Shown here one piece after another: positions 1-14,334 of a DNA stretch of 15,934 nucleotides. The first letter of the stretch is position 1. Each line of letters begins with the position of its first letter. A model generated the notes under the pieces. That model was not told the DNA's origin. It worked only from the letters and a program-made list of their open reading frames with translations, and ran no database searches. Origin of the DNA: a virus (Duplodnaviria; Heunggongvirae; Uroviricota; Caudoviricetes); the IMG/VR virus record IMGVR_UViG_2529292919_000020; one strand, given 5' to 3'. The translations under genes and the position numbers were made by a program.

Positions 1-1230
1 ATGAGCAGAGCACTTAACAAACTGAGCGATACACAGCTGAGGAAAATCAACGGCACACCCGCCCAAAAAACAGCCTTTCTTAATGACGGTGGAAACCTGA
101 GCGTCAGGCATTCAACCAGCGGCCTTTTAACCTGGTATTTCACTTACAGGGCCGGAACGGGAAGGGGGGCACCACCGGAACGCATTAAGCTGGGAAATTA
201 TCCTGATCTGAGCCTGAAATCAGCCAGGGAAAAAGCCGCCCAGTGTCGCGCATGGCTGGCTGAGGGGAAAAATCCACGTCATGAGATGAATTACACCGTA
301 CAGGAAGCGTTAAAGCCGGTAACGGTTGGCGATGCGCTCACCTACTGGCTTGAGTCGTACGCAAAGGAAAACCGTGTAGATTATGACCCACTGAAAAAGC
401 GGCTAAATAATCACGTAATACAGCACATTGGCTCTATGCCGCTGGATAAATGCGAGCTACGGCACTGGCTGGCCTGTTTTGATCGGGTGGCAAAGCAAGC
501 CCCTGTTTCCGCCGGGTTCCTGCTACAGACATGCAAACAGGCGCTTAAGTTCTGCCGGAAGCGGCGCTATGCAATCAGCAACGTTCTTGATGATATGAGT
601 GTGGCTGACGTTGGGAAAAAACCGGATATAAGCGAACGTGTCTTAAGCAATAAAGAACTGGGCGAATTATTGCAGACACTGGACAAAAAAATATTTTCCC
701 CTTACTACGTCGCACTAATCCGCCTCCTGATTGTTTTCGGATGCCGGACAGTAGAACTGAGATTATCGGAGATCGGCGAGTGGGATTTTACCGAAATGCT
801 CTGGACTGTTCCGAAGGAGCACAGCAAAACGAAGGTAGCCATATTCCGGCCCATACCGGAAGCGATACTGCCGTTCGTCACGCAGCTGGTGGAGCAGAAC
901 AGGCACACGGGCTTATTGCTGGGGGAAGTGAAACAGGAAACCAGCGTATCGCAGTACGGCAGATTGGTGCACAGGAGGCTTAAACACCCTCACTGGTCAT
1001 TGCATGACATCCGGCGCACCTTTACAACGATGCTGAACGATTTAGGCGTGGATCCTCACGTCGTGGAGCAGCTTACAGGACACCAGATGCCAGGGATGCA
1101 ACGAGTCTATAATCACTCCCGTTATCTGGATGCGAAACGCAATGCGCTGGATATGTGGACGGAGCGGTTAGGGATACTGGCGGGAGCACATGAAAACGTA
1201 ACCACGCTATCAGTAGCCAGAAGAAAATAA
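1..1230 (+). CDS. int: Tyrosine recombinase / integrase, P4-type (N-terminal arm-binding-like domain plus C-terminal catalytic domain)
   Basis: 409-aa ORF starting at ATG at position 1. The N-terminus (LSDTQLRKI...NDGGNLSVRHS...TWYFTYR...LGNYPDLSLKSAREKA) resembles the arm-DNA-binding domain of P4-like integrases. The C-terminus carries the tyrosine-recombinase signature (HDIRRTF...LTGHQ...RVYNHSRY). The ORF begins exactly at the window edge, so an upstream extension and attL cannot be assessed. Confidence 0.9.
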   Translation: MSRALNKLSDTQLRKINGTPAQKTAFLNDGGNLSVRHSTSGLLTWYFTYRAGTGRGAPPERIKLGNYPDLSLKSAREKAAQCRAWLAEGKNPRHEMNYTVQEALKPVTVGDALTYWLESYAKENRVDYDPLKKRLNNHVIQHIGSMPLDKCELRHWLACFDRVAKQAPVSAGFLLQTCKQALKFCRKRRYAISNVLDDMSVADVGKKPDISERVLSNKELGELLQTLDKKIFSPYYVALIRLLIVFGCRTVELRLSEIGEWDFTEMLWTVPKEHSKTKVAIFRPIPEAILPFVTQLVEQNRHTGLLLGEVKQETSVSQYGRLVHRRLKHPHWSLHDIRRTFTTMLNDLGVDPHVVEQLTGHQMPGMQRVYNHSRYLDAKRNALDMWTERLGILAGAHENVTTLSVARRK

Positions 1231-1286
1231 TTTTTTTCGTGTTTTTTCAGTATGCGCATACTGGATAAGCACACAGATACAACGGC

Positions 1287-1322
1287 GAACAATGTGAAAC
1301 AACGTGGAACAACCACGAACAA
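1287..1322. promoter_or_regulatory. Four GAACAA units phased at exactly 10 bp (starts 1287, 1297, 1307, 1317): candidate binding array for an AlpA/Xis-type or integrase arm-binding protein
   Basis: Direct reading: cGAACAAtgtGAAACAAcgtgGAACAAccacGAACAAg. The reverse complement shares 18 identical nt with 7335..7352 and with 14335..14352. Position is between the int stop and the alpA start. Confidence 0.5.
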
Positions 1323-1605
1323 GAGGCGAAAAAGCACACAGGTTTATAAGTGACTGATTTTATTTGTATGACTGGTTTTTTATACATTAGCGAATAACGC
1401 TTTAACGCGTGAGAAAAAAGGCGTAAAACGAGATTTTATGCCTTTGTATTAATATGAATTTAAATGATTTTATCCTGATTGTTCCTCTTTCTGTAAACCA
1501 TACGGACTCAACATTTGCCAACGCTGAATCATCCTGACACAATCAGACACAACCCAACCCAATAACCCACCCAATGACTCTTTAAGAAACAACAAAGGGG
1601 GAATT

Positions 1606-1794
1606 GTGTTAAGCACAGATCGCTTTATACGTGAAAAAGAATGTCAGCAACTTACAGGCCTGAGCCGCTCATGTCGGTATCGCCTGGAGAAGACTGGACA
1701 ATTCCCATCACGGCGTAAACTCGGCGGTCGTTCCGTTGGCTGGTCTTTATCCGAAGTTCTGGCATGGAAGGACAGCCGCGAGGCAGTTCACTAA
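1606..1794 (+). CDS. alpA: AlpA-family (Xis/Vis-like winged-helix) transcriptional regulator
   Basis: 62-aa ORF with GTG start preceded by a strong Shine-Dalgarno (AAGGGGGAA). The motif ...CQQLTGLSRSCRYRLEKTGQFPSRRKLGGRSVGWSLSEVLAW... matches the AlpA pattern (L-TGLSRST-YRL---G-FP-P-KLG-R-V-W---EV--W). Confidence 0.85.
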   Translation: MLSTDRFIREKECQQLTGLSRSCRYRLEKTGQFPSRRKLGGRSVGWSLSEVLAWKDSREAVH

Positions 1795-2057
1795 TCAGGC
1801 TGGCGGCGCACCGCCGCCACCCATCCACTAACACAGAGATCTAACCATGAATACTGGATATACGCCCGAACAGGGGCGGGGCTTCGTTCGTCCTGGTGAA
1901 ACTAAAAAGCCATGTTATCGGGTATTTTCAGGCATAAAAAAAGCGGCCCCGATAAGGAACCGCCTTTCGGAACAATTAACCTGCTGCGAAAAAAATGGAT
2001 CAGTGCAGGGGAATTATATCAACCGTGTGGCGAAGCGCCACAATTGCCGGATAACAG

Positions 2058-2088
2058 GCAAAACAAAGGCGACCGCAAAAGGGTCGCC
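2058..2088 (-). terminator. Rho-independent terminator for the leftward small-gene pair
   Basis: Perfect 7-bp stem GGCGACC/GGTCGCC (2068..2074 and 2082..2088) with a 7-nt loop. On the minus strand it is followed by TTTGTTTTG. It lies about 67 bp downstream of the minus-strand ORF ending at 2155. Confidence 0.5.
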
Positions 2089-2154
2089 AGTGGGAACAAG
2101 GGAAAACAAAAGCATCACCAACAATGCCACATTTGCGGCTGGTGGGCAATGCAA

Positions 2155-2343
2155 TCAGTCTGGTTCAGTTCGTTGCCATACCTGCAATGAGCGCTTTTCC
2201 CTGTACTCTTTAAGGAATTGCTCAAGGGCAAAAGCACATGGCGCGAATCTTTCTGATTCATGCTCTATCTTTCTGCGTCGTCTTTTCCGTGTCGGTGATA
2301 ATGTTTTGGTCAATTCTTTATCGGTCATTGTGTTGTCCTGCAT
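2155..2343 (-). CDS. Hypothetical small basic protein (57-62 aa), second gene of the leftward pair
   Basis: ORF-track ORF (MQDNTMTDKELTKTLSPTRKRRRRKIEHESERF...). An AGGA lies 8 nt upstream of the second in-frame ATG, so the true start may be at 2328. It sits 42 bp downstream of the RHH-like ORF on the same strand. No recognisable family. Confidence 0.4.
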   Translation of the reverse strand: MQDNTMTDKELTKTLSPTRKRRRRKIEHESERFAPCAFALEQFLKEYREKRSLQVWQRTEPD

Positions 2344-2385
2344 AGCAATGCGCCGTAATACCTTACACCACGGCGCTGGTGATGG

Positions 2386-2565
2386 TTATTCCTGCTCTTT
2401 GGCCTTGCGACGCTGGCGGTATTCAACTTCTCGCTTTAATGCTGCTGTTACAAACTGCCCTGTACTTTCACCAGGCATTTTTACCGCCTCAACATTGTTC
2501 ATAACTTCATGCGGAACCCTTGCCGCAACTGTTTGTGATTTTGCGTTTACTGCTTTTGTTGCCAT
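2386..2565 (-). CDS. Ribbon-helix-helix-like DNA-binding protein (59 aa), candidate repressor of the divergent promoter region; not in the supplied ORF track
   Basis: Hand-translated minus-strand ORF: MATKAVNAKSQTVAARVPHEVMNNVEAVKMPGESTGQFVTAALKREVEYRQRRKAKEQE. An SD-like GGGG lies about 10 nt upstream of the ATG. The layout (N-terminal beta strand TVAARVP, helix, G-x-S/T turn, second helix) is typical of Arc/MetJ/CopG RHH proteins. It is 59 aa, so it falls below the apparent 60-aa cutoff of the track. Confidence 0.5.
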   Translation of the reverse strand: MATKAVNAKSQTVAARVPHEVMNNVEAVKMPGESTGQFVTAALKREVEYRQRRKAKEQE

Positions 2566-2613
2566 GTTGTGTACCCCTTACAAAAAACAAATGCAGTATG
2601 CAGGAAAAAAATA

Positions 2614-2667
2614 AGTGTTCAACACTTGACGTGTTTAATACCAGGGCTTAAATTGGTGTTCAACACC
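2614..2667. promoter_or_regulatory. Divergent promoter/operator region: two identical 11-bp near-palindromic operators GTGTTCAACAC (2615..2625 and 2656..2666) overlapping back-to-back sigma70-like promoters
   Basis: Rightward promoter: TTGACG (2626..2631), 17 bp, TAAATT (2649..2654). Leftward promoter on the minus strand: TTGAAC (complement of 2658..2663), 17 bp, TATTAA (complement of 2635..2640). The operators are 41 bp apart centre to centre and overlap the -35 elements. The region sits between the minus-strand RHH-like gene and the plus-strand small-ORF/replication operon. Confidence 0.45.
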
Positions 2668-2763
2668 TTACTAATGCAAGGTGCAGAAACGACGAAACCC
2701 GGCAGTGCGCTAACACTAACCGGGCTTCTAACCACCAACGATAGAAAGCGTATCGAGGTAGCT

Positions 2764-2970
2764 ATGAGAAATTATACCAGACACCCGCAAGGGCGGGACT
2801 CGTACAACCTGAATAAATACATCTGGCGTTTTATCGCCCTGAGCACGGCACAACCGCGCGTGATTACCATTGAGGCCACCAGCGAACAGGAAGCGCGTCA
2901 GCAATCTCCTGATGGCTGCGTGATGGTATTCGCTGCCCGTATTCGCCAGGGGGAAACCTATGCACAATAA
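2764..2970 (+). CDS. Small protein (68 aa), possibly of the Icd-like (P4 host cell-division inhibitor) family; family assignment is from memory only
   Basis: In-frame ATG at 2764 with GAGG 6 nt upstream. The track ORF 2569..2970 has earlier ATGs without an RBS. Sequence MRNYTRHPQGRDSYNLNKYIWRFIALSTAQPRVITIEATSEQEARQQ...VFAARIRQGETYAQ. First gene of the rightward operon downstream of the operator region. Confidence 0.5.
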   Translation: MRNYTRHPQGRDSYNLNKYIWRFIALSTAQPRVITIEATSEQEARQQSPDGCVMVFAARIRQGETYAQ

Positions 2971-3196
2971 AACCACACCGGACGCAGCCGCCGAAGCCAT
3001 CAAAACGCTGATGCACGCGCTGATTGATATTTCTGTTATCGCAGACAAGGCGCATAAGCACGCCACCAGCGAAACAGAATATGCCGGGGCTTTCGTTCCT
3101 CACTCACTGGCTCTTATGCAATTTAGTGCTGATATGGCGCTGAATGAGGCAGGCAAAATTCTTACCGCAGATATTCAGGGGGTGCACCATGCATGA
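2960..3196 (+). CDS. Hypothetical protein (78 aa)
   Basis: ATG at 2960 overlaps the upstream gene by 11 nt, with AGGGGGAA as SD. Part of a chain of overlapping small ORFs. No recognisable motif. Confidence 0.5.
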   Translation: MHNKTTPDAAAEAIKTLMHALIDISVIADKAHKHATSETEYAGAFVPHSLALMQFSADMALNEAGKILTADIQGVHHA

Positions 3197-3416
3197 TGAC
3201 CGTTATCTTAAATCAATGAGCCATGCAGAAAACGCACTGACTAACAGTGAATGTTTGAGGCAAATATTTCTTATCTGGCTTGATGGTTTAAGTGATGAGC
3301 CGGAAGATGAGCGTGAGTCTAATCTTGCTGGTGCGTTTATTTCATTACTCGATACGGTAATCGTCGAATTAAATAAAGCGATCGAAATTCACGATAAAAA
3401 AATAAACGCGGAATAA
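3189..3416 (+). CDS. Hypothetical acidic protein (75 aa)
   Basis: ATG at 3189 with AGGGGG SD. Preferred over the track start at 3144, which lacks an RBS. Overlaps the stop of the preceding ORF (3194..3196). Confidence 0.5.
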   Translation: MHDDRYLKSMSHAENALTNSECLRQIFLIWLDGLSDEPEDERESNLAGAFISLLDTVIVELNKAIEIHDKKINAE

Positions 3417-3421
3417 AAACC

Positions 3422-3709
3422 ATGAAAAATAAAAATTCTGGCTTTACTGCCAGCGGCCCCGCTCGGCCTGAAATCCGCCCCGGCGATATTTTCCGGGATA
3501 ACTATGGCGGCACGGTAACGATAAAAGGCGTGGCAGAACGGCGCATCACTTACCGCCGTGATGGCTACGAATATGACTGCGTGATGCCTGTTTATCAGTT
3601 CCGGCGTGATTTCACGCTGGTGGGCCATCGTAAAGCCGTAAATCAGAAACGTGCAGCAAGTCATATCCGCAAAATTCGTGAAATGCTGGTCGCAGGGGGT
3701 AAAAAATGA
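3422..3709 (+). CDS. Hypothetical basic protein (95 aa), translationally coupled to the replication initiator
   Basis: ORF-track ORF. Its stop overlaps the start of the downstream gene in an ATGA arrangement (3706..3709). Confidence 0.55.
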   Translation: MKNKNSGFTASGPARPEIRPGDIFRDNYGGTVTIKGVAERRITYRRDGYEYDCVMPVYQFRRDFTLVGHRKAVNQKRAASHIRKIREMLVAGGKK

Positions 3710-5520
3710 AACTGGCACCGAACGTAAAACAGCAGTTACGCGGCATAAAACACAAAGAAACAGAAGTCATTATTTTTGCGGGTAGTGATGCCTGGTCACA
3801 CGCAAAACAATGGCAGGAACATGACGCGCGTATGGCCGGAGATAATGAGCCTCCTGTGTGGCTTGGGGAGCAGCAGTTATCCGAACTGGATAAGCTGCAA
3901 ATTGTGCCGGAAGGCAGAAAATCCGTGCGCATATTCAGGGCCGGATATCTTGCGCCAGTAATGATAAAGGCGATTGGTCAGAAGCTGGCGGCGGCAGGCG
4001 TACAGGATGCAAATTTTTATCCTGAGGGTATGCACGGCCAGGAGGTGCAGAACTGGCGCGAATATCTGGCCCGTGAGCGCCAGAATCTTTCTGATGGTCT
4101 GGTGATTCAGCTTCCTGTTAAGAAAAAAACAGAAGACAGCGCCGCACCACTGGCGCTTAACCAGATGGGAGCAAGCCAGCGCGGCGAAGTTCTCCTGGCA
4201 CATTATGGCGGTGAACTGGCGATTCATGCCGACTCTGACACTGTTCACCATTACAACGGCGTTGTATGGGAGCCGATTCAGGATAAAGAGTTACAGCGTG
4301 CTATGGCGCAGATTTTCATTGATGCGGAGATCAGCTATTCGCAGAACGCCATTAAATCGGCGGTCGATACCATGAAGTTAAGTTTGCCTGTAATGGGGAA
4401 TACAGCCCGTAACCTGATTGGATTCAGTAACGGGGTATTTGATACCAGAACAGGTAATTTTCGGGAGCATAACAAAAACGACTGGTTGTTAATTGCCAGT
4501 GAATTACCTTTCAGCCCACCAGCAGAGGGGGAAACGCTGGCAACACATGCGCCGAATTTCTGGAAGTGGTTACGCCGCTCGGTGGCAGAGAATGACCGCA
4601 AGACGGATCGCGTGCTGGCTGCATTATTCATGGTGCTGGCGAACCGGTACGACTGGCAGTTATTCATTGAGGTAACAGGTCCAGGGGGAAGTGGTAAAAG
4701 CGTGATGGCGGAGATTTGCACCATGCTGGCGGGTAAGGCCAACACAGTATCGGCAAGCATGAAGGCGCTGGAAGATGCAAGGGAACGCGCGTTAGTGGTT
4801 GGCTTTTCGCTGATTATCATGCCGGATATGACCCGCTACGCTGGTGATGGCGCAGGAATTAAGGCCATTACAGGCGGTGACAAGGTGGCAATCGACCCGA
4901 AGCATAAAGCCCCCTACTCAACACGCATTCAGGCGGTCGTGCTGGCGGTGAACAATAACGCCATGTCATTCAGTGACCGCAGCGGGGGGATCTCACGTCG
5001 TCGGGTGATATTCAATTTTTCGGAGGTTGTACCGGAGAACGAGCGCGACCCCATGCTGGCAGAAAAAATAGAAGGAGAGCTGGCGGTTGTGATTCGCCAT
5101 CTGCTTACTCGTTTTTCTGACCAGGACGAAGCTAAACGCCTGCTGTATGAGCAGCAGAAATCAGAAGAAGCTCTGGTGATAAAACGCGAGGGCGATTCGC
5201 TGGTGGACTTCTGTGGCTATCTCATGTCGTCGGTAATGTGTGATGGTCTGTTAGTGGGTAATGCCGAAATTATTCCGTTCAGTCCGCGCAGGTATCTTTA
5301 TCACGCCTATCTGGCATATATGAGGGCACACGGATTCGGTAAACCTGTAACACTGACGCGCTTCGGTAAAGATATGCCGGGGGCAATGGCGGAATATGGC
5401 AGGGAGTATATAAAACGGAAAACGAAGCACGGTTTGCGTTCAAATGTGACACTGACAGAGGATTCAGAAGACTGGATGCCATCATGTGCATCGGTCACAA
5501 ATGACGACAGCAAAAATTAA
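3706..5520 (+). CDS. Replication initiator (pri-rep) with P4-alpha-like C-terminal SF3 helicase / origin-binding region; N-terminal ~200 aa of unassigned family
   Basis: 604-aa ORF with strong SD (CAGGGGG). Walker A GPGGSGKS, followed by a region resembling the phage/plasmid primase P4-family C-terminal (D5-like) helicase domain. Sits immediately upstream of an iteron array. Confidence 0.85.
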   Translation: MKLAPNVKQQLRGIKHKETEVIIFAGSDAWSHAKQWQEHDARMAGDNEPPVWLGEQQLSELDKLQIVPEGRKSVRIFRAGYLAPVMIKAIGQKLAAAGVQDANFYPEGMHGQEVQNWREYLARERQNLSDGLVIQLPVKKKTEDSAAPLALNQMGASQRGEVLLAHYGGELAIHADSDTVHHYNGVVWEPIQDKELQRAMAQIFIDAEISYSQNAIKSAVDTMKLSLPVMGNTARNLIGFSNGVFDTRTGNFREHNKNDWLLIASELPFSPPAEGETLATHAPNFWKWLRRSVAENDRKTDRVLAALFMVLANRYDWQLFIEVTGPGGSGKSVMAEICTMLAGKANTVSASMKALEDARERALVVGFSLIIMPDMTRYAGDGAGIKAITGGDKVAIDPKHKAPYSTRIQAVVLAVNNNAMSFSDRSGGISRRRVIFNFSEVVPENERDPMLAEKIEGELAVVIRHLLTRFSDQDEAKRLLYEQQKSEEALVIKREGDSLVDFCGYLMSSVMCDGLLVGNAEIIPFSPRRYLYHAYLAYMRAHGFGKPVTLTRFGKDMPGAMAEYGREYIKRKTKHGLRSNVTLTEDSEDWMPSCASVTNDDSKN

Positions 5521-5530
5521 ACTTATGGAA

Positions 5531-5760
5531 TAACTGTTCACCACTGTTCACCCTGTGATAAATATCTTTTATATCAGTACATTATAGGGTGAACAGTTAT
5601 TTGTGAACTGTTCACCAAACTATTCACTGTTCACCTTTTTGATTATTTATTGAGCTTTAAGGGTGAACAGTGGTGAACAGTTGGTGAATAGTTTTTGTGA
5701 AACTGTTCACCCCTTAACATTATGAATAAAAAGGGAAAATCTCAAAAGGTGAACAGGTGA
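5531..5760. repeat. Replication origin iterons: about ten copies of CTGTTCACC / GGTGAACAG in both orientations, with an adjacent AT-rich tract
   Basis: Forward copies start at 5534, 5545, 5608, 5627, 5703. Inverted copies start at 5588, 5662, 5672, 5748, plus a degenerate GGTGAATAG at 5683. Neighbouring copies are 10-11 bp apart. AT-rich AAAAATTTTATTTTATT at about 5774..5790. The core TGTTCACC is the octamer I recall as the alpha-binding iteron of P4 ori1/crr. Confidence 0.8.
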
Positions 5761-5853
5761 AGGGTTAAAATGCAAAAATTTTATTTTATTGCTGTGAGGT
5801 AAAGCCTGTGACAACGAAGCACGCAAAAAAAACCACAATCTCACGCCCTTGAT

Positions 5854-6054
5854 TTGACAGAACACTGGCTGAGGGTGGCGATAAAAATCATCGACCGCAA
5901 CGCGGGAGAAGGGTACGCAAAAGCACATCCCGAACTGATAAGCGCATTCATGACCACGGCGGCGGCAAACTTTGCCACGCTGACAGAACGGGAGATTGCC
6001 GAAGCGGAACAGGTGACAACCATCAACGTTAAAACCGGAGAGCAGACAGCATGA
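5854..6054 (+). CDS. Hypothetical small protein (start uncertain: TTG at 5854 or GTG at 5875)
   Basis: ORF-track ORF. Its stop overlaps the SSB start (ATGA at 6051..6054), suggesting coupling. No convincing RBS and no recognisable motif. Confidence 0.35.
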   Translation: MTEHWLRVAIKIIDRNAGEGYAKAHPELISAFMTTAAANFATLTEREIAEAEQVTTINVKTGEQTA

Positions 6055-6476
6055 CAGCACAGATAGCGGCTTACGGGCGGCTGGTGGCTGACCCGCAGTT
6101 AAAGACCACCAGCAAAGGGACACAAATGGCGATGGCGAGTATGGCGGTTCCCCTGCCGTGCAGCCAGGCAGATGACGGAACGGCGACGATGTGGTTATCT
6201 GTCCTGGCGTTTGGCAGACAGGCCGACGCACTGGCAAAACACCACAAAGGCGAACTGGTGAGCGTGGCGGGTAACATGCAGGTGGGCCAGTGGACAGGCC
6301 AGAACGGGGAAACGCAGCGGGGCTGGCAGGTTATTGCAGACAGCGTAATCAGTGCGCGAACGGCGCGACCGGGCGGCAAAAAAGGTCAACAGGGCCAGGC
6401 CACTGACGCACTGAACAGGGCAAAACAACAGACAAGCCAGCACGATGACCCGTACGGGGATAACATACCGTTTTAA
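6051..6476 (+). CDS. ssb: Single-stranded DNA-binding protein (SSB)
   Basis: 141 aa. The N-terminal OB-fold region aligns by eye with E. coli SSB (WLSVLAFGRQADALAKHHKGELVSVAGNMQVGQWTGQNGETQ versus [42 protein letters not shown]). Gln/Gly-rich linker and C-terminal tip ...DDPYGDNIPF resembling the SSB ...DDDIPF tail. GGAGAG SD upstream. Confidence 0.85.
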   Translation: MTAQIAAYGRLVADPQLKTTSKGTQMAMASMAVPLPCSQADDGTATMWLSVLAFGRQADALAKHHKGELVSVAGNMQVGQWTGQNGETQRGWQVIADSVISARTARPGGKKGQQGQATDALNRAKQQTSQHDDPYGDNIPF

Positions 6477-6512
6477 TTCACAACAGCGAACAGAGTAATT
6501 ACAGGGGAAGGC

Positions 6513-7043
6513 ATGACAACGCTGACCATTAACCGGAAGCCGAAAGGCATTTACGGCACGCCGCAGAAAACGACGCAGGCGGCGCAAGAGCAGGATAAAA
6601 CCACATCGGCGCATAAAGTGATACCCGGCAATCAGAACGCACAGCAGAAGCCCACAGGGGCGACACCGTGGCAGCATATGACCAAAAGGCAGCGCAAAAA
6701 CCGCCGACGCGTTAACCGCCTCACTGAGATGTGGCCTGACTTATTCAGCCATAAAGCACCGAAGCCGCTTAAGGTGGGGATATTCGACGACCTGATGCAG
6801 GATATCGCCGTCAGGGGGCTGGCATTCGGGCCGGGGGTATTACGTGCGACGCTGGCATCCTATGCGCAGTCTCCGCGCTATTACCGCGCCCTGATAGCTG
6901 GTGGCGCACGTTACGACCTGAAAGGCCAGCCATGTGGGGAAGTGACACCACAGGAACAGCAGGAGGCAGAAACACGGCTGATGGTGCTGAATGAGAAGCA
7001 CAAGCGCCAGCGCCGGGCAGCAAAGGGGGATACATGCCAGTGA
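6513..7043 (+). CDS. ProQ/FinO-domain RNA-binding protein
   Basis: 176 aa with strong SD (GGGGAAGG). ...WPDLFSHKAPKPLKVGIFDDLMQDIA...LRATLASYAQSPRYYRALIAGGARYDLKGQPCGEVTPQEQQEA matches the ProQ N-terminal / FinO fold signature (PLKIGIF-DL ... LR-AL--Y--S-RY ... R-DL-G-PCGE). Confidence 0.8.
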   Translation: MTTLTINRKPKGIYGTPQKTTQAAQEQDKTTSAHKVIPGNQNAQQKPTGATPWQHMTKRQRKNRRRVNRLTEMWPDLFSHKAPKPLKVGIFDDLMQDIAVRGLAFGPGVLRATLASYAQSPRYYRALIAGGARYDLKGQPCGEVTPQEQQEAETRLMVLNEKHKRQRRAAKGDTCQ

Positions 7044-7282
7044 CATTTGAAGAAGTTCAGCAACATAAAAAGCTTCATTGTTTTGATGATCTGGAAACCA
7101 CGACAGCAAAAAAATATCGTCGGTTGCTTTCTTCCGATGCGTTATTTTTTGTGGATCATCATGATTTTCTGCGTAGCTCACTGACCGGGGAAATTTTCGC
7201 AACCAACCGTGAGCAGGTGGAAGCGATGATCGAATATTTGTGGAAAATAAGACGCAGAATGCGGGAGCCAGTGAAACAATAA
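7034..7282 (+). CDS. Hypothetical protein (82 aa)
   Basis: ATG at 7034 with GGGGGA SD, overlapping the stop of the ProQ/FinO-like gene. Followed directly by an intrinsic terminator. Confidence 0.5.
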   Translation: MPVTFEEVQQHKKLHCFDDLETTTAKKYRRLLSSDALFFVDHHDFLRSSLTGEIFATNREQVEAMIEYLWKIRRRMREPVKQ

Positions 7283-7290
7283 AGCGATAA

Positions 7291-7319
7291 AGGCCCGGAT
7301 TTTTTCCGGGCCTTTTTTC
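7291..7319 (+). terminator. Rho-independent terminator closing the replication/accessory operon
   Basis: Stem GGCCCGGA (7292..7299) pairing with TCCGGGCC (7305..7312), followed by TTTTTT (7313..7318). Confidence 0.7.
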
Positions 7320-7336
7320 AGGTTTTGTAAATTATT

Positions 7337-7362
7337 TGTTCGTGGTTGTTCCAGGTTGTTCG
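7337..7362. promoter_or_regulatory. Three TTGTTC units phased at exactly 10 bp (starts 7337, 7347, 7357) upstream of the capsid operon: candidate activator-binding site for late/packaging gene expression
   Basis: Direct reading: tTTGTTCgtggTTGTTCcaggTTGTTCgg. An 18-nt exact match to the reverse complement of 1304..1321. Lies just after the terminator and about 195 bp upstream of the major capsid gene start. Confidence 0.5.
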
Positions 7363-7555
7363 GTGATTCTGGTTGATGTTTACATACTGATTTTTATGTA
7401 TATGTTGGCGTGTGGCACTCAGACGTGAGCCGCCACAATGCCGCCTGACCCCCTGCGCGATGCCGGGTTGATCTGCGAGATGCCGAGAGTGTCGGGCGGC
7501 GCTCCCCCCGTGTTGGTTTCACGTCCTGAATCTTAACCAATGCGAGAAAACCTTC

Positions 7556-8701
7556 ATGAAGAAATTAATCGAACTCCGCCAGCAAAAAACCGCCCTGAAA
7601 AACCAGATGCGATCCCTGCTGGAAAAAGCCGACAGTGAAAACCGCAGTCTAACCGATGACGAGGGCAAACAGTTTGATGAACTGCGTGCAAAAGCCGATT
7701 CCCTCGACACAGAAATTTCCCGACTCGAGTCTGTGGCTGATGAAGAACGTAACCAGCCTGGTGTTCCCGTCGAAGATAAAATCACCAAAGACGAGCTACG
7801 CTCTTACATTCTGACCGGGGAAACCCGCAACCTGTCCGGCAGTGTTCCGGCTGATGGTGGTTATACGGTTATCCCGGAACTGAACAGAGAAATTATGCGT
7901 CAGCTTTCTGATGAGTCGGTGATGCGTAAAATCTGTACTGTTAAAACCATTCACAGTAATGAATTTAAGCAACTGGTTTCTGCCGGGGGTGCGGTCGTGG
8001 GACACGGCGAAGAAGGTGCGGCACGTAACCAGACGGCAACCCCAAAACTGAATGAAGTCAGTATCCGCCTGTATCCGATCTACGCTTACCCGAAAACCAC
8101 TCAGGAAATTATCGATTTTTCCGAAGTCGATATTATGGGCTGGTTATCTTCTGAAATTGGCGACACTTTCGTTGATACCGAAGAAACGGATCTGGTTTCC
8201 GGTGATGGCGAGAAAAAAGCCAAAGGTTTCCTGACTTTCCCGCGCACTACGGATAATGACAAAACCCGTCCTTTCGGTACGCTCCAGACGAAAAAAGTGA
8301 CTGGCAGTCTCAGCGCCGATATGCTGATTGACCTGAAATTTACGCTGCGCAATAAGTACCGCAAAAAAGCTGTATGGGTGATGAACTCAAATACAGCCGC
8401 CTCCGCACAAAAACTGAAAAATGCCACTGGTGATTACATCTGGCGCGATCGTTTACAGGCTGGTGATCCTGATTCTCTGCTGGGGCTTCCGGTTGAATAT
8501 CTGGAATTTATGCCGGACGGTGTGATTGCAGTCGGTGACTTTAAGCGCGGTTATTTCATCGTTGACCATAAAACCGGTACGCGTACCCGTCCGGATTTCA
8601 GCGAGCCTGGATTCATTAACATCTATACCCAGAAATATCTGGGCGGTGGTGTGGTGGATTCGAACGCCATCAAGATTCTGGAAATTCAGGCTGGCAAGTA
8701 A
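7556..8701 (+). CDS. Major capsid protein, HK97 family (with N-terminal coiled-coil delta/scaffold-like domain)
   Basis: 381 aa. The N-terminal ~100 aa are highly charged and coiled-coil-like (ELRQQKTALKNQMRSLLEKAD...LRAKADSLDTEISRLES), as in HK97-type capsid delta domains. Gene context with protease and portal. Confidence 0.85.
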   Translation: MKKLIELRQQKTALKNQMRSLLEKADSENRSLTDDEGKQFDELRAKADSLDTEISRLESVADEERNQPGVPVEDKITKDELRSYILTGETRNLSGSVPADGGYTVIPELNREIMRQLSDESVMRKICTVKTIHSNEFKQLVSAGGAVVGHGEEGAARNQTATPKLNEVSIRLYPIYAYPKTTQEIIDFSEVDIMGWLSSEIGDTFVDTEETDLVSGDGEKKAKGFLTFPRTTDNDKTRPFGTLQTKKVTGSLSADMLIDLKFTLRNKYRKKAVWVMNSNTAASAQKLKNATGDYIWRDRLQAGDPDSLLGLPVEYLEFMPDGVIAVGDFKRGYFIVDHKTGTRTRPDFSEPGFINIYTQKYLGGGVVDSNAIKILEIQAGK

Positions 8702-8709
8702 TGAGCAAA

Positions 8710-8730
8710 GGGGGCTTCGGCCTCCTTTTT
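8710..8730 (+). terminator. Intrinsic terminator/attenuator immediately after the major capsid gene (UUCG tetraloop hairpin plus T-run)
   Basis: GGGGGC (8710..8715), TTCG loop, GCCTCC (8720..8725, one G-U pair), TTTTT (8726..8730). Located between the capsid stop (8701) and the protease start (8751). Confidence 0.6.
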
Positions 8731-8750
8731 CAGCTTTATGGAGTACACCG

Positions 8751-9311
8751 ATGAAAAACACCGATTTTGAAATCCGTACATCTGAACTGACCGCCAGCGA
8801 TAAAAAACTGGTGGGTTATGCCGTTCGCTGGAACAGCCTTTCAGAAATTATCTGGGACGAGTTTCGCGAACAGTTCACGCCGGGGGCTTTTGCTGACTAT
8901 CTGGCGGCGGGTAATGATGTGCGCTGTCTGTATGAGCATGACTATACCCGACTGCTGGGGCGTACCAAATCCGGCTCACTGGTACTGACTGAGGATAACA
9001 CCGGGCTACGTTTTGAACTGACACCGCCAAATACCCAGCTTGGAAAAGATGTGCTTACGCTGGTGGAACGTGGCGATATTACAGGAATGAGCTTTGGCTT
9101 TCGCGCATTATGCGAGGAGTGGAATATCGCGCAAAAACCGTATCTGCGTACTGTAACCGCCGCAGAACTCCGTGAAATCACGATAACATCGATGCCTGCT
9201 TATCCCGAATCCGGCGTGGAGATTGCCCACCGTTCGTTGTTTGCACAGTACCCTGAATTACGCCCGGCAGGAAATAATCGTCATCGCTGGGCTGAACTGG
9301 CGGGGTTGTGA
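8751..9311 (+). CDS. Prohead maturation protease, HK97 family (S78/U35-like)
   Basis: 186 aa from ATG 8751 with GGAG SD. The track ORF 8526..9311 extends upstream into the capsid gene in another frame. Motifs typical of HK97 proteases: LVGYAVRWN...LYEHDYTRLLGRT...GLRFELTPPNT..GKDVL..VERGDITGMSFGF. Confidence 0.85.
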   Translation: MKNTDFEIRTSELTASDKKLVGYAVRWNSLSEIIWDEFREQFTPGAFADYLAAGNDVRCLYEHDYTRLLGRTKSGSLVLTEDNTGLRFELTPPNTQLGKDVLTLVERGDITGMSFGFRALCEEWNIAQKPYLRTVTAAELREITITSMPAYPESGVEIAHRSLFAQYPELRPAGNNRHRWAELAGL

Positions 9312-9312
9312 T

Positions 9313-10527
9313 ATGTGGTGGCCTTTTAGTCGTAAAAAAAGCGATCTGCGTAACCTGTCCATTGATGATTTTCTGGCGTTGTCTGGTGTACCAAATACCG
9401 GATCCGGAGAATATGTTTCTGCCGGGACGGCTGAATCATTGCCTGCTGTGATGAACGCGGTTTCTGTCATCGCTGAGGCGGTGGCCACGATGCCGTGTTA
9501 CCTGTATCTGGTACGCAATGATAAGGGCAGAGAGGCGCGGGAATGGCTGGACAGTCACCCGGTAGATATTCTGCTGAATGAGCAGCCTAATTCGTGCCTG
9601 ACACCTTACCAGTTTAAACGCACAATGATGCGTCACTGCCTGCTGAACGGTAACGCCTATGCGGTTATTGAGTGGGGGCGGGACGGGCAGCCAAAATCAC
9701 TTCATCCTTATGCGCCGGGGTGTGTTGTACCGGAACGCACAGGCACACACAAATACCGCTATACCATCACCGAACCCTGTACAGGAACGGTGCGCACGTA
9801 TTTACAGGAAGAAGTTCTGCATCTCCGCTATGCCTCGGATGATGGCTTTCTGGGGCGTTCCCCCGTCACGATTTGCCGTGAGGCGCTGGGGCTTGGCCTT
9901 GCTCAACAGCGTCACGGAGCCAGCATTATGAAAGATGGCATGATGGCGGCAGGGATTATCACGTCAGGTGAATGGCTGGACGGCGTGAAAGGTAAACAGG
10001 CATTAGACGCACTGGAACGCTACAAGGGGGCGAAAAATGCCGGAAAAACGCCAATCCTTGAAGGGGGCATGGATTACAGGCAGCTGGGGATGAGTAACCA
10101 GGATGCGGAATGGCTGGCCTCCCGTCGCTTCTCCATTGAAGACATCGCCAGGATGTTCAACGTGTCGCCGATTTTTCTTCAGGAATACAGCAACAGCACC
10201 TACAGCAATTTCAGTGAGGCGAGCCGCGCATTTCTGACCATGACAATGCGCCCGTGGCTGGCGAACTTCGAACAGCAAATCAAGGCCGCTTTGCTGGTGA
10301 CTTCTCCCGTACCAGGTACCCGTTATCTGGTTGAGTTTGATTCAGCCGATTTACTGCGCGCCACACCCACCGAACGTTATGCCACGTATGAGAAAGGGAT
10401 TAAGAGCGGGATCATGAATCCGAACGAAGCTCGCGAACGCGAGGGGATGCCGCCGCGTGAAGGTGGTGATGAGTTCAGCCAGGCATGGAAACAGACTGTG
10501 GAAATTAAAGGGAGAAAAGATGAGTGA
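9313..10527 (+). CDS. Portal protein, HK97 family
   Basis: 404 aa from ATG 9313, 2 nt after the protease stop. The track ORF starts at 9223 inside the protease gene. Size and order are consistent with a portal; overall similarity to HK97-type portals by eye. Confidence 0.8.
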   Translation: MWWPFSRKKSDLRNLSIDDFLALSGVPNTGSGEYVSAGTAESLPAVMNAVSVIAEAVATMPCYLYLVRNDKGREAREWLDSHPVDILLNEQPNSCLTPYQFKRTMMRHCLLNGNAYAVIEWGRDGQPKSLHPYAPGCVVPERTGTHKYRYTITEPCTGTVRTYLQEEVLHLRYASDDGFLGRSPVTICREALGLGLAQQRHGASIMKDGMMAAGIITSGEWLDGVKGKQALDALERYKGAKNAGKTPILEGGMDYRQLGMSNQDAEWLASRRFSIEDIARMFNVSPIFLQEYSNSTYSNFSEASRAFLTMTMRPWLANFEQQIKAALLVTSPVPGTRYLVEFDSADLLRATPTERYATYEKGIKSGIMNPNEAREREGMPPREGGDEFSQAWKQTVEIKGRKDE

Positions 10528-10822
10528 AGCCAGAATTACACCTGATGAAGTCAGGGCACATCTTCGACTTGATGATGATTTATCCGGTGAAGGCGAACTT
10601 CTGAAAATGTATACCGATGCGGCGCTGGAAGCCTGCCAGAAGCATATCGGGAAACGTTTTGAAGACGGGCTGGAATTTACCCCGGCAATGCGTGTTGGTT
10701 GCCTGATGTACATCGCTTTCCTGTACGAGAACAGGGAAGCAGTTTCACCAGTGGAGCAGTCTGAACTGCCTATGGCTATTTCTGCGCTCTGGTCGGTTTA
10801 TCGTGATGTGGGGGTGTACTGA
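10520..10822 (+). CDS. Head-tail connector (gp6-like) protein
   Basis: 100 aa from ATG 10520 with GGGAG SD, overlapping the portal stop. N-terminal ...EVRAHLRLDDDLSGEGELLKMYTDAALEACQ... resembles the gp6-like head-tail connector family signature. Confidence 0.7.
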   Translation: MSEARITPDEVRAHLRLDDDLSGEGELLKMYTDAALEACQKHIGKRFEDGLEFTPAMRVGCLMYIAFLYENREAVSPVEQSELPMAISALWSVYRDVGVY

Positions 10823-11262
10823 TGCCGTGGCAACCATTAAGGCGATGCACTGAGCCGGGCTGTAATAAGCGCGTGAAGTCCGGCAAGTGTGAAGAGCACA
10901 GGCGGGCTGTATGGCGTGCAGAGGATGCCAGACGGGGACACCGCCGCGCGCGCGGGTATTCCCGACAGTGGGACAAATACCGCGCCCTGTACCTGAGCAA
11001 AAACCCGTTATGCGTGCATTGTCTGGTTAAGGGGATTTATACGCCAGCTCTTGTGGTGGATCACATCATTCCCATCAATGGCGGCGGTGATGTTCTCTTC
11101 TGGCCTGAGTGGAACCACCAGGCATTGTGCCAGACGTGCCACAACCGTAAGACGACACGGGAAGATCCCGCCACGAAAGCGAACCGTAAGGCGGGCATGT
11201 ATCGCGAGCAGGAAGAACGGGCGGCACACCGTAACGACTGGATGTATGGCGATGATGACTGA
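10822..11262 (+). CDS. HNH endonuclease (terminase-associated)
   Basis: 146 aa. The start overlaps the connector stop (TGATG). Cys-rich N-terminus (C..C......C..H) and HNH core VVDHIIPINGGGD...NHQALCQTCHNRKT. Confidence 0.85.
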   Translation: MPWQPLRRCTEPGCNKRVKSGKCEEHRRAVWRAEDARRGHRRARGYSRQWDKYRALYLSKNPLCVHCLVKGIYTPALVVDHIIPINGGGDVLFWPEWNHQALCQTCHNRKTTREDPATKANRKAGMYREQEERAAHRNDWMYGDDD

Positions 11263-11550
11263 ACAGGAGCAAAACAGGCTGATACGTGGGTTGATAAGGC
11301 AGCGTGACACATGGAAGACACAGGAGACAGGGCACAAAGCCAACAGGACAGGGCGCACAAAACGCACCACAGCGAAGTGATTAACCGACCGTGACCGCGA
11401 GGTCATGGAATGTTTTCGCAATCGCTGGTGAGGCCGTCAGAGGGGGTGGGGGTGGTTTTCAGGACGAAACCGCCCCTGCCGGACACCGACCGCCTCCTCA
11501 AATTTTTGTGCACGGGAATTTTTTTGAAAATAATTGGGCGAAAAAAGAAC

Positions 11551-11907
11551 ATGGCAAGACCACCAAAAGCCCCCGCTTACCTGGATGAAATCGCGGTCAG
11601 GCAGTGGAAGGAAAAATCGCGCCAGCTTTCCGGACGGGAAGACCTTACCCCCGCCGACTGGAGCAATCTGGAGCTGTATTGTGTTAACTACTCCATATAC
11701 CGCAAAGCCGTCGAAGACCTTGCCACGCGCGGGTTCAGCATTGTTAACAGTCAGGGCAGCGAGAGCAGAAACCCCGCCCTGAGCGCAAAGGCTGACGCTG
11801 AAAGAATAATGATCAAAATGGCTTCTTTGCTGGGTTTTGACCCGGTAAGTCGCCGCAGAAATCCACCGGAAACAGAGGAAGAGGACGAGCTTGACCGCCT
11901 GGCATGA
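11551..11907 (+). CDS. terS: Terminase small subunit (P27-like family)
   Basis: 118 aa from ATG 11551 (MARPPKAPAYLDEIAVRQWKE...LELYCVNYSIYRKAVEDL...NPALSAKADAERIMIKMASLLGFDPVSRRR), a pattern typical of P27-family small terminases. The track start at 11410 adds a low-complexity leader lying in the putative packaging-site region. Confidence 0.75.
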   Translation: MARPPKAPAYLDEIAVRQWKEKSRQLSGREDLTPADWSNLELYCVNYSIYRKAVEDLATRGFSIVNSQGSESRNPALSAKADAERIMIKMASLLGFDPVSRRRNPPETEEEDELDRLA

Positions 11908-13552
11908 GTACGCAGAAGGCGTAAAAAACGGCAAAATTACGGCCTGTAAACGACTGAAACAGGCCGTTAAACGGTATTTTTCTGACCTTGAAAACCCCCT
12001 TTACACGTTCGATCCGGAGGTCGTGGAGCGGTTTATTGCCTTTTCCAGGGTGTGTCCGCACGTAAAAGGCGCAATGCGCGGTAGCCCCATTGAGCTGGAG
12101 CCGTGGCAGCAGTTCGCCTTTGCGTGCATCCTGGGCTTTAAGGTTAAGGCCACCGGACGGCGCAAATACACCAGCGCATTCATTGAAGTGCCGCGAAAAA
12201 ATGCCAAATCCACGGTCGCCGCTATCCTGGCTAACTGGTTTCTGGTTATGGAAAACGGGCAGCAGGATATTTACACCGCCGTCGTGAGTCGTGATCAGGC
12301 GCGGATCGTGTTTGATGATGCGCGTCAGATGTGCCTTTTATCCCGACCGTTACGAAAGCGGGTAAATATTCAGGCACACAAGGTGATACACCCGAAAACC
12401 AACAGCCTGTTAAAGCCACTGGCAGCAAAAGCGGCAACCATTGAAGGTACAAACCCGAGTCTTGCCATTGTGGATGAATATCACCTGCACCCTGACAACG
12501 GGGTTTATTCCGCGCTTGAACTGGGAATGGGGGCGCGTCCGGAGGGGCTGTTATTTGCCATCACCACATCGGGGAGCAACGTTGTTTCAGCCTGTAAACA
12601 ACACTACGACTATTGCTGCCAGATACTGGATGGTGAAGAGGTGAACGAATCCATGTTCGTGCTGATTTACGAGCTGGATGATGAAAGCGAGGTTGACGAT
12701 CCGGCGATGTGGATAAAGGCGAATCCCAATATCGATGTTTCCGTCGATCGTGAAAAACTGGCCTCAACCATCCAGAAAGCGCGGGGTATTCCGTCGCAGT
12801 GGGTGGAAATGCTCACCAAGCGATTCAATATCTGGTGTCAGGGGGCCACGCCGTGGATGGGTAACGGTGCATGGGCGGAGTGCGCCGGAACGTTCGCGGA
12901 GGCGGATTTATACGGTCAGGAGTGCTACGCGGGGCTGGACTTATCATCAACCAGCGATATTTCCAGCGTGTGCTATGCCTTTCCGGTCGGTAAAAAGATT
13001 ATGCTGGTTTCCCGTCACTATCTGCCGGAATTTCAGCTACAGAACCCCGCCAATAAAAACCGCGCCATCTATCGCCAGTGGGTAAAGGCGGGCTGGATAC
13101 GCACAACACCGGGTGACTGCATTGATTATGACCGTATCCGTGATGACATCATGGCGGATGCAGAGAATTTCAATATCAGGCTGGTGGGCTTCGATACATG
13201 GAACGCCACGCACCTGAGGACGCAGCTACAGGGGGCAGGATTTGAGGTGGAGCCGTTCCCGCAAACATACCTTCGTTTCAGTCCGGCGGCGAAATCGTTC
13301 GAAGTTTTTGTTAACCGGAAGGTGATTGTGCATCGTGGTGATCCGGTGCTGGCCTGGTCAATGAGTAATGTTGTGATGCAGAGTGACGCGAACGCCAATA
13401 TCAAGCCGAACAAGAAAAAATCATCCAACAAGATAGACCCGAGCGTTGCGGCGCTGATGGCGTTTGGCACATTCCAGGCAGAGCATGAAGATTTTGCCTT
13501 TGATATAAGCGACAGCCACAAAGAGCGGCTTGCGGCGTTTGATGGTGTATAA
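11891..13552 (+). CDS. terL: Terminase large subunit (ATPase/nuclease)
   Basis: 553 aa. The start is probably TTG at 11891, overlapping the terS 3' end by 17 nt; the next in-frame ATG is about 60 codons downstream and would remove the conserved N-terminus (WHEYAEGVKNGKITACKRLKQAVKRY). Walker A-like VPRKNAKST. Length and position typical of terL. Confidence 0.9.
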   Translation: MTAWHEYAEGVKNGKITACKRLKQAVKRYFSDLENPLYTFDPEVVERFIAFSRVCPHVKGAMRGSPIELEPWQQFAFACILGFKVKATGRRKYTSAFIEVPRKNAKSTVAAILANWFLVMENGQQDIYTAVVSRDQARIVFDDARQMCLLSRPLRKRVNIQAHKVIHPKTNSLLKPLAAKAATIEGTNPSLAIVDEYHLHPDNGVYSALELGMGARPEGLLFAITTSGSNVVSACKQHYDYCCQILDGEEVNESMFVLIYELDDESEVDDPAMWIKANPNIDVSVDREKLASTIQKARGIPSQWVEMLTKRFNIWCQGATPWMGNGAWAECAGTFAEADLYGQECYAGLDLSSTSDISSVCYAFPVGKKIMLVSRHYLPEFQLQNPANKNRAIYRQWVKAGWIRTTPGDCIDYDRIRDDIMADAENFNIRLVGFDTWNATHLRTQLQGAGFEVEPFPQTYLRFSPAAKSFEVFVNRKVIVHRGDPVLAWSMSNVVMQSDANANIKPNKKKSSNKIDPSVAALMAFGTFQAEHEDFAFDISDSHKERLAAFDGV

Positions 13553-13557
13553 CGAGA

Positions 13558-13842
13558 GTGAGCGAAACCGAACTACTAAAAATAATCCGCCGCATTACCG
13601 GAATCAGCCAGGAAGCAGGCAAACAGGAGGCCACGCAGCCGGACAGCGTGATAGCCGAAAATTACGCGCGTGTGGTGGCTGAGGTGATGCGCCGTGATGG
13701 TATTGAGCTTAACGGCGTGGATATGCGCTACATACGGATCAGAGTTCTGGAGTTGTTGTCATATCGTCGCCGCGTGGAGATGTACCAGGAGAAAGAAAAA
13801 ATTACTTACCACTGGAAGAAGCCGGAGCGGTTGCGGCGGTAA
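13558..13842 (+). CDS. Hypothetical protein (94 aa) downstream of terL; last ORF of the element
   Basis: ORF-track ORF with GTG start and weak RBS. Charged, helical-looking sequence with no recognisable motif. Its stop codon lies inside the first copy of a 23-nt direct repeat. Confidence 0.4.
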   Translation: MSETELLKIIRRITGISQEAGKQEATQPDSVIAENYARVVAEVMRRDGIELNGVDMRYIRIRVLELLSYRRRVEMYQEKEKITYHWKKPERLRR

Positions 13843-14003
13843 CTGGTTGATATTCCCGACGGTCCAAAAATGGGTTGGCTACACCCCTCACAACTACGAC
13901 ATTTTCGCAGTTTAATTAATGGTCAGCTTAATCGCTAACCCGCTGATATTTTCGGAAACCTCAATTTGAGGAAGTCGGCGCGGTAACTGTTTGATATTCC
14001 CGA
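13837..14003. repeat. 23-nt direct repeat CGGTAACTG(G/T)TTGATATTCCCGA (13837..13859 and 13981..14003, 1 mismatch), part of a diverged ~140-bp tandem duplication
   Basis: Direct reading. A second shared block CTAACCCG(C/T)TGAT occurs at about 13936 and 14069. Confidence 0.5.
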
Positions 14004-14334
14004 TAACGCAAAATTGCGCTGGATGAATGAACATTATGTTACTTATGATTACGCAGATGATTAAGGCCTAACCCGTTGATTCTTCCACAATCCCCCATTG
14101 GGGGAGGCTGGGCGGCCTGCTGTGGGCTTTTCCACCATTGGTGGAAAGGTGCAGATCTGAATCATCATTACGGTGATCAAGGGTATGTAAAACCCACCAG
14201 CCTGATTGACATTTAACCGGAAAAAAAGCCAGGTAGCCCCGTTATGGGGATCCCCATATCGACATTAACGCCCCTCATGAATTGGCGTGCTTTCCCCTGG
14301 AAAGATGACCCGCCTGTATATTTCTTGTGTCTAT

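Follow-up and report, generated by a model that had tools for sequence, protein, structure and literature searches.

A probable capsid-forming island beside phoQ in Escherichia coli whose head module carries no head-closure gene

[quoted passage not shown] The prototype is induced by the helper phages HK106 and HK446 in a manner that requires alpA, makes its own small capsids and needs the tail genes of the helper (10.1101/2022.09.08.507074). This behaviour is documented only for EcCIEDL933 and a few further elements. Its capsid has T=4 geometry, and its adaptor and connector together set the choice of tail (10.1101/2025.02.11.637232). Elements of the family are defined by a size of 10-18 kb, by integration, regulation and replication genes and an exclusive packaging module, and by having neither lysis genes nor a complete set of tail genes (10.1101/2025.02.11.637232). 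The stretch of DNA analysed here (the window; 15,934 nucleotides, IMG/VR virus record IMGVR_UViG_2529292919_000020) very probably holds an integrated cf-PICI, a close relative of EcCIEDL933 inserted at the same site directly after the phoQ stop codon. Its architecture is that of an already described family, published since 2022, and the element is not new in kind. What sets it apart is the absence of the prototype's head-closure gene from a head module that is otherwise present and is under purifying selection.

Extent, integration site and head module of the island

Over its full length the window was 99.4% identical to the E. coli genome NZ_AP043637.1 (L001), in which the left junction, lying outside the window, could be read. 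Alignment of the empty K-12 site, the insertion-free comparison that the earlier note had proposed, with both junctions gave a 10-bp attachment (att) core, GGACATATTT, and an element length of 14,646 bp between cores, a size within the range of roughly 10-18 kb with defined att sites that is expected of a cf-PICI. The attL core lies at 7820-7829 of L001, 180-171 nt before window position 1, which places the left end of the element about 180 nt before the window. The right end, which had been put at 13842, is in fact at about 14475, at the att core, so that some 630 nt had been omitted.

14466-14475, no strand: attR core GGACATATTT; overlaps the stop codon of phoQ (14474-14476); junctions identical in EDL933
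14474-15934, minus strand: phoQ, the right flank

In K-12 the spacing between roxA and phoQ is 75 bp (L003 4241-4317); the insertion puts 14.6 kb between roxA and phoPQ. In NZ_AP043637.1 the core genes roxA, pepT and potABCD directly precede int. Tail genes to the left of int had been thought unlikely and left as a caveat, which is removed because roxA directly precedes int in this 99.4% identical genome. A tRNA scan of the window found none, and the att site is therefore not a tRNA gene. A 75-nt direct repeat near both ends was considered as the att site and rejected, since the empty K-12 site places it inside the element; the two copies represent the two attP arms with their arm-type sites.

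The head and packaging genes occupy the right half of the element. All genes that had been named from the sequence were found at their places by Pfam and NCBIfam/TIGRFAM profiles, and the profile searches for capsid, protease, portal and terminases confirmed virion-protein families for the open reading frames (ORFs) of the capsid module.

7556-8701, plus strand: HK97-fold major capsid protein (MCP; Phage_capsid 8e-61 over residues 101-376; major_cap_HK97 300 bits)
8751-9311, plus strand: S78 HK97-family prohead serine protease (Peptidase_S78 2e-44; proheadase_HK97)
9313-10527, plus strand: HK97-family portal (Phage_portal 2e-91; portal_HK97 249 bits; solved portals also matched)
10520-10822, plus strand: gp6-like head-tail connector, Ad1 (Phage_connect_1, PF05135, 4e-5; TIGR01560 2e-20; phrog_40 'head-tail adaptor Ad1' 1.8e-28)
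10822-11262, plus strand: HNH endonuclease (Pfam HNH 8.5e-9; 83% identical to the EDL933 copy)
11432-11550, no strand: putative cohesive-end site (cos) region (conserved GGGGGTGGGGGTGGTTTTCAGGAC block; intergenic sequence about 90% conserved with EDL933)
11551-11907, plus strand: small terminase subunit TerS, P27 family (Terminase_4 4e-23; sm_term_P27)
11891-13552, plus strand: large terminase subunit TerL with ATPase and nuclease domains (TerL_ATPase 4e-25, TerL_nuclease 2e-52; 94% identical to the EDL933 copy)

The capsid, protease and portal scored above the cutoffs of the TIGRFAM HK97 equivalogs. The MCP carries an N-terminal coiled-coil delta (scaffolding) domain and matched PDB 9gyi, whose chain is the EcCIEDL933 MCP sequence, with E = 3.7e-184. 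HNH endonucleases are terminase partners in HK97-type cos cutting, and cos is probably located at 11432-11550, between the HNH and terS genes. In line with this position, a related element, LR881103.1, has a linear record that stops precisely at the homologous GGTTTTCAGGAC and begins again 22 nt ahead of terS.

The record LR881103.1 is named 'Escherichia phage vB_KppS-Ant' (16.5 kb) and holds a cf-PICI gene set; the tape-measure annotation of a 766-aa gene after its terL (2036-4333) is probably a wrong label on an accessory gene. Two Pasteurella 'phages', Pmp7 and Pmp8 (10.7 and 15.3 kb), also have the look of satellites. When the connector was compared with a phage collection, the closest matches (61-68% identity) were a short unannotated fragment of an O157:H7 strain, a stretch, likewise unannotated, of a 106-kb Klebsiella phage record and the cf-PICI-like vB_KppS-Ant. 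The remaining phage matches were at most 47% identical, so that no candidate helper was revealed.

Between terL and phoQ there are no tail or lysis genes, as had been claimed; this interval holds only a 94-aa ORF and about 620 nt of non-coding att arm. Among the ORFs of the window, all searched against Pfam or PHROGs, there was no holin, lysin or tail match, and the flanks are roxA and phoQ. The small ORFs had no transmembrane-type segment. The proposal that the element is a capsid-forming PICI was borne out by the prototype itself, which is likewise inserted at roxA|phoQ, matches both att junctions exactly and has its genes in the same order.

Head modules without a closure gene

EDL933 encodes, between portal and connector, a 112-aa 'phage head closure protein' (the 'adaptor', Hc1). 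In the window the connector gene starts within the end of the portal gene, so that no further gene fits between them, and the EDL933 protein had no match in the window by tblastn. A profile built from the closure proteins of relatives, in which one connector sequence was included by mistake, had no match among all six-frame window ORFs of at least 30 aa, with positive controls recovered at 1e-38 and 1e-52. The head and packaging set described as full by the earlier note therefore contains every gene that was named and lacks the head-closure gene of the prototype.

The capsid-to-connector module was found in 534 of the 5426 complete E. coli genomes searched, EDL933 included (about 10%). A search with the portal-connector-HNH junction split the 534 into about 143 genomes at at least 90% identity and about 390 below. 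In the 11 genomes listed from the first group the junction was contiguous without a closure gene, and in those listed from the second an annotated head-closure gene interrupted the match. The closure-less module was found at three places or more in the chromosome, joined to different front halves: roxA|phoQ (the window), allE|allC (L004, NZ_AP043617.1) and cspD|clpS (L022). The allE|allC island was 98% identical to the window; its integrase was 90% identical and its core-proximal sequence differed. Its similarity to the window ends at window position 14447, about 20 nt before the att core, and the two islands form a natural pair for the study of integrase core specificity. The cspD|clpS element has a different integrase and a DUF927 replication protein.

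The ratio of nonsynonymous to synonymous substitution rates (dN/dS) between the window and the cspD|clpS element was 0.05 for the connector, 0.07 for the portal, 0.08 for TerL, 0.05 for TerS, 0.12 for the protease and 0.19 for the MCP. The closure-less head module is under purifying selection (dN/dS 0.05-0.19). In the same pair the protease, portal, connector, HNH and terminase proteins were 95-99% identical and the MCP only 71% (7556-8701 in the window against 9501-10670 in L022); apparently the rest of the module has been conserved and the capsid allele exchanged.

The arrangement recurs outside E. coli. In one-genome-per-species data, the portal, connector and HNH genes of Erwinia psidii and Gilliamella sp. 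App6-5 were directly adjacent with no closure gene, and the gene was kept in sister elements of Gilliamella and Frischella and in Pasteurellaceae elements. The connectors of closure-less elements did not cluster together, which suggests repeated loss. Most carriers hold a single copy of the module, which argues against a second cf-PICI as the supplier of the closure protein. The simplest reading suggested by these data is that the helper provides the closure protein to closure-less elements. Among the papers searched, none was found to discuss a closure-less variant.

We tentatively propose that a recurrent cf-PICI sub-lineage discarded the adaptor gene and completes its own capsids with the closure protein and tail of the helper. 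With the same reserve, the sub-lineage would take in this element, roughly one in four of the E. coli elements with this head module, and the separate cases in Erwinia and Gilliamella. If true, tail compatibility would be automatic and the specificity checkpoint would move to the contact between the island connector and the helper closure protein, a graded step between satellites that steal only tails and classical capsid piracy.

Several points weigh against a functional cf-PICI. The adaptor expected of the family is absent, which leaves one of 11 family core components missing; elements with 10 of the 11 are still accepted by SatelliteFinder as Type B, the commonest class (PMC10085698). In the prototype, mutation of the packaging module abolished transfer for every gene except one hypothetical gene, whose loss severely reduced it (10.1101/2022.09.08.507074). 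The positions of cos and of the AlpA-binding sites are ones that we infer. Finally, this copy carries two lesions. A C-to-T change at 11378 creates a stop codon (R45*) in a 61-aa ORF (phrog_3173) and cuts it to 44 aa; the ORF is intact in L001, AST20 and EDL933. The A-run at 5825-5833 has nine residues in the window and eight in L001, which frameshifts the 81-aa phrog_1231 ORF; the extra residue could come from a sequencing error in the homopolymer, or the run could be a site of slippage. With a nonsense codon and a homopolymer frameshift, this copy may therefore transfer poorly; each lesion may be a sequencing error or may lower function.

The missing adaptor, the phenotypes of the prototype mutants, the joint role of adaptor and connector in tail compatibility and the two lesions also speak for a cf-PICI-derived remnant, unable to make infective particles and inherited only vertically. 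We consider such a remnant unlikely. The closure-less module forms a lineage, with about 143 E. coli carriers, three att sites or more and varied integrase and replication modules, and its head and packaging genes are constrained throughout (dN/dS as above). The same arrangement recurs in E. psidii and the Gilliamella strain, and both lesions are private to this copy, being absent from the 99.4% identical L001.

Much less probable still is a decayed HK97-like temperate prophage from which the tail and lysis modules were deleted. The head and packaging genes are indeed phage-derived, and the closest capsid structures outside the satellites are of the HK97-family proteins from the gene transfer agent of Rhodobacter capsulatus (Rcc01687; PDB 6tb9/6tba). 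However, the element is a compact 14.6 kb with clean att junctions, its PICI-type front half (int, alpA, replication) is common to EcCIEDL933, and the tail-less architecture is conserved in the 534 E. coli genomes and in other genera. It contains no tail or lysis remnants, and the contiguous immunity, tail and lysis modules of a prophage were not found; the prototype, moreover, is an active satellite. A gene-transfer-agent reading, raised by the capsid of the R. capsulatus agent as the next-best solved match, was rejected in view of the integrase, replication module, origin and own cos-type terminase set.

The value of the element is accordingly that of a natural variant, with a known architecture and the prototype at this very locus; a specialist would find the architecture unsurprising, and a new, testable question comes from the closure-less lineage alone. 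A head module can persist under selection without the adaptor, a gene that published work treats as essential and as a determinant of tail acceptance. Should the closure-less lineage prove transmissible, the list of what these satellites have to obtain from a helper would change, and the prediction of their host range would be affected.

Integration, replication and accessory genes

The left-hand gene order is int-alpA-...-rep-ori, as in EcCIEDL933, and supplies the integrase, regulator and replicase of a cf-PICI. The features concerned with integration and regulation are as follows.

1-1230, plus strand: tyrosine integrase with an arm-type DNA-binding domain (Arm-DNA-bind_3 4e-18, Phage_integrase 6e-17; 96% identical to EcCIEDL933)
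1277-1322, plus strand: 10-bp phased (G/A)AACAA(C) repeats between int and alpA
1606-1794, plus strand: AlpA-family regulator (Phage_AlpA 2.7e-18; 90% identical to EcCIEDL933 AlpA, 46% to P4 Vis/ORF88)
7289-7361, no strand: terminator-like hairpin (7289-7319) followed by inverted phased GAACAA repeats (7336-7361); 91% identical to the EDL933 counterpart
13843-14465, no strand: non-coding right att arm with arm-type sites, a phased GAACAA repeat and a 43-nt repeat pair

A tandem pair of arm-type sites, GGTGTAGTTAAT, lies at 14369-14392, and the same 12-mer pair occurs 22-45 nt before int in L001. The attL core and this pair of arm-type sites thus fall 21-180 nt upstream of int, outside the window. 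The layout fits the integrase because the latter carries the Arm-DNA-bind_3 domain, and it is shared with P4, whose attP has annotated paired 12-nt arm repeats. The right arm also contains a 43-nt direct repeat (13836-13878 and 13980-14022, 144 nt apart) and several short hairpins at 14090-14260, where EDL933 has extra matching sequence. RNA folding of the non-coding right arm gave z = -1.6, which was not significant.

AlpA is the inducer and excision factor of Gram-negative PICIs. The phased (G/A)AACAA repeats (six matches in the window against 0.04 expected; kept in EDL933) occur at three places, 1277-1322, 7336-7361 (inverted) and 14335-14350 in the att arm, and those at 1277-1322 pair as inverted repeats with 7336-7360 and 14323-14364. 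They are candidate binding sites for an AlpA/Vis-type protein, and a protein of this type acting at att and at operon promoters would fit their placement. The segment 7289-7361 lies upstream of the head operon and is a putative promoter region under regulation.

Replication features lie between the regulator and the head module.

3706-5520, plus strand: replication protein (Pfam D5_N, DUF5906, Pox_D5)
5535-5755, no strand: replication origin; nine TGTTCACC iterons, some in each orientation, surround a centre rich in A and T
6051-6476, plus strand: single-stranded DNA-binding protein (SSB; Pfam SSB 1.6e-15; 67% identical to the EDL933 copy)

The replication protein scored 98 bits against TIGR01613 ('primase, P4 family'), under the cutoff of 108.7. 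Its residues 137-594 were 49.7% identical to residues 313-776 of P4 alpha, and the N-terminal primase region of P4 alpha had no match in the window by tblastn. The N-terminal 140 or so residues are common to the EcCIEDL933 replication protein; at the DNA level 3407-4128, which covers the DUF4222 gene and the first 140 or so rep codons, was 83% identical to EDL933 (L005 5594-6327). An N-terminus shared with the EDL933 DUF927 protein and a P4-alpha-like remainder therefore place a recombination joint inside the rep gene. By its sequence, the replication protein is a mosaic whose remainder is predicted to be a P4-alpha-like superfamily 3 helicase with an origin-binding domain. The TGTTCACC octamer occurred 11 times in the window against 0.57 expected, nine of them clustered at 5535-5755 just after the rep gene, and is identical to the annotated type-1 repeats of P4 ori/crr.

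The P4-like replication core claimed by the earlier note thus stands for the helicase and origin part and the iterons, and does not extend to sid, psu, delta or epsilon. When all P4 proteins were searched against the window by tblastn, the only matches were int (24%), alpha residues 313-776 (49%) and Vis (46%). That the element is a P4-family satellite which gained a head module is highly improbable: the P4-alpha-like domain (50%), identical iterons, Vis/AlpA homologue, arm-type integrase and paired 12-nt attP arm repeats speak for it, but the element is not P4-family because sid, psu, delta and epsilon have no counterpart, the primase region of alpha has no match, the integrase is only 24% identical to that of P4, the rest of the element is collinear with EcCIEDL933, and primase-replicase types and replication modules are exchanged among satellite families according to a published survey (PMC10085698).

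The remaining genes are accessory or small conserved ORFs.

1847-2384, plus strand: truncated homologue of the 247-aa EcCIEDL933 post-alpA gene (blastp 55% over 230 aa)
2386-2565, minus strand: YlcI/YnfO-family small accessory protein (RefSeq in L001; phrog_949 4.7e-22)
2764-2970, plus strand: Icd-like small protein (RefSeq name 'host cell division inhibitor Icd-like'; phrog_6196 2.4e-41)
2960-3196 and 3189-3416, plus strand: two small conserved ORFs (phrog_5146, phrog_2196; no PADLOC match)
3422-3709, plus strand: DUF4222 protein (Pfam DUF4222 1e-25)
5808-6054, plus strand: 81-aa conserved ORF upstream of ssb (phrog_1231; 1e-49 for the intact L001 copy)
6513-7043, plus strand: ProQ/FinO-family RNA-binding protein in the EcCIEDL933 PerC slot (Pfam ProQ 1.2e-23; no PADLOC match)
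7034-7282, plus strand: 82-aa conserved ORF (phrog_1957; 40% identical to the EDL933 ORF at the same position)
11246-11431, plus strand: small conserved ORF between HNH and terS (phrog_3173; 61 aa in relatives)
13558-13842, plus strand: 94-aa conserved last ORF (phrog_1561 3e-49; 76% identical to the EDL933 ORF at the same position)

DNA similarity to EDL933 in the post-alpA gene ends at 2378, and the window ORF 1847-2614 reaches 2614 only by reading antisense through the next gene; RefSeq calls the L001 copy a pseudogene without its C-terminus. EDL933 homology ending at about 2378, followed by antisense reading through the YlcI/YnfO gene, indicates that the post-alpA slot is rearranged. The slot is listed as variable (10.1101/2022.09.08.507074). 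A DUF4222 gene directly upstream of the replication gene is also found in EDL933 and in the allE|allC and cspD|clpS elements. No defence system was matched by PADLOC among the accessory ORFs.

The 94-aa last ORF had 960 homologues, every one labelled 'hypothetical', and contains no hydrophobic segment. Its AlphaFold2 (AF2) model was of three helices (mean confidence score, pLDDT, 68), and a Foldseek search of the PDB with this model gave no match at E < 2. The model indicates only that the protein would not have the beta-rich fold of a closure or tail protein. The ORF is not a tail, holin or closure protein.

An Rfam scan of the whole window gave sub-threshold matches only, namely the palindromic origin repeats against miRNA models and a SymR-like match at 2691-2763, and no RNA gene is claimed. 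The weak SymR-antitoxin-like match (minus strand; score 33 bits, gathering score 61; E = 0.006) adjoins the icd-like gene upstream and is probably due to chance.

Proposed life cycle and comparison with known systems

The following steps were shown experimentally for the prototype and are carried over to this element by homology. A helper phage would turn on alpA, and AlpA with the integrase would cut out the 14.6-kb element; a further action of AlpA is probable at the phased GAACAA repeats in the att arm, in the int-alpA gap and before the head operon. The P4-alpha-like helicase would bind the TGTTCACC iterons downstream of its own gene, and replication would proceed with the island SSB. The HK97-type capsid protein, with its own delta-domain scaffold, would assemble on the island portal into a small shell, probably of T=4 geometry, that the S78 protease matures. 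Island TerS, TerL and HNH would cut the island's own cos, probably between the HNH and terS genes, and package island DNA only, after which the gp6-like connector would cap the portal. Tails and lysis functions would come from the helper. As the element has no head-closure gene, the neck protein would likewise come from the helper or be dispensable with the helper of this element. In a new cell the P4-type integrase would recombine at GGACATATTT by phoQ, with the paired GGTGTAGTTAAT sequences as its arm sites.

The element has in common with HK97, and with HK97-like lambdoid phages of which the helper HK106 is one, a delta-domain HK97-fold capsid, S78 protease, portal, gp6-like connector and HNH-assisted terminase. 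Unlike these phages, the element has no tail, lysis, immunity or head-closure genes, and its genome is one third the size.

Satellite P4 has in common with the element the homologous helicase and origin-binding part of alpha (50%), identical TGTTCACC iterons, a Vis/AlpA-type regulator, and an arm-binding-domain integrase with paired 12-nt arm repeats. P4, however, makes neither a capsid nor a portal nor a terminase; it reshapes P2 capsids by means of Sid and Psu and relies on the terminase and cos of P2.

Classical Gram-negative PICIs of the EcCICFT073 type share the int-alpA-replication front half and AlpA induction. They differ in having no portal, connector or TerL and in using helper capsids; in the PICI model of SatelliteFinder, portal, connector and TerL are 'forbidden' (PMC10085698). 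Among cf-PICIs, EcCIGN02175 and KpCIDSM30104, compared here by their description, come under the same family definition and were both described with adaptor and connector, of which only the connector is found in this element (10.1101/2025.02.11.637232).

The closest described system is EcCIEDL933. A first assignment of this name to the potC-region prophage of NZ_CP008957.1 was rejected, that region being an unrelated lambdoid prophage, and the island was found by similarity search. The prototype has an adaptor, which this element does not. It has a DUF927 rep with a different origin where the P4-alpha-like C-terminal part is found here, and PerC where a ProQ/FinO gene is found here; its post-alpA gene is truncated in this element, with a ylcI-family gene added on the other strand. 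Across these elements, the integrase, replication (P4-alpha or DUF927), capsid-allele and accessory modules recombine freely around a conserved terminase core. The spacing between cores is 15,461 bp in EcCIEDL933 and 14,646 bp here. Both islands occupy the roxA|phoQ site with the same 10-bp core, arm-type sites and identical junctions, and in both the genes follow one another in the same order, from int through to the final 94-aa ORF, likewise without tail or lysis genes. Protein identities between the two were 96% for the integrase, 90% for AlpA, 67% for SSB, 74% for the MCP (blastp), 61% for the protease, 80% for the portal, 56% for the connector, 83% for HNH, 88% for TerS, 94% for TerL and 76% for the final 94-aa ORF.

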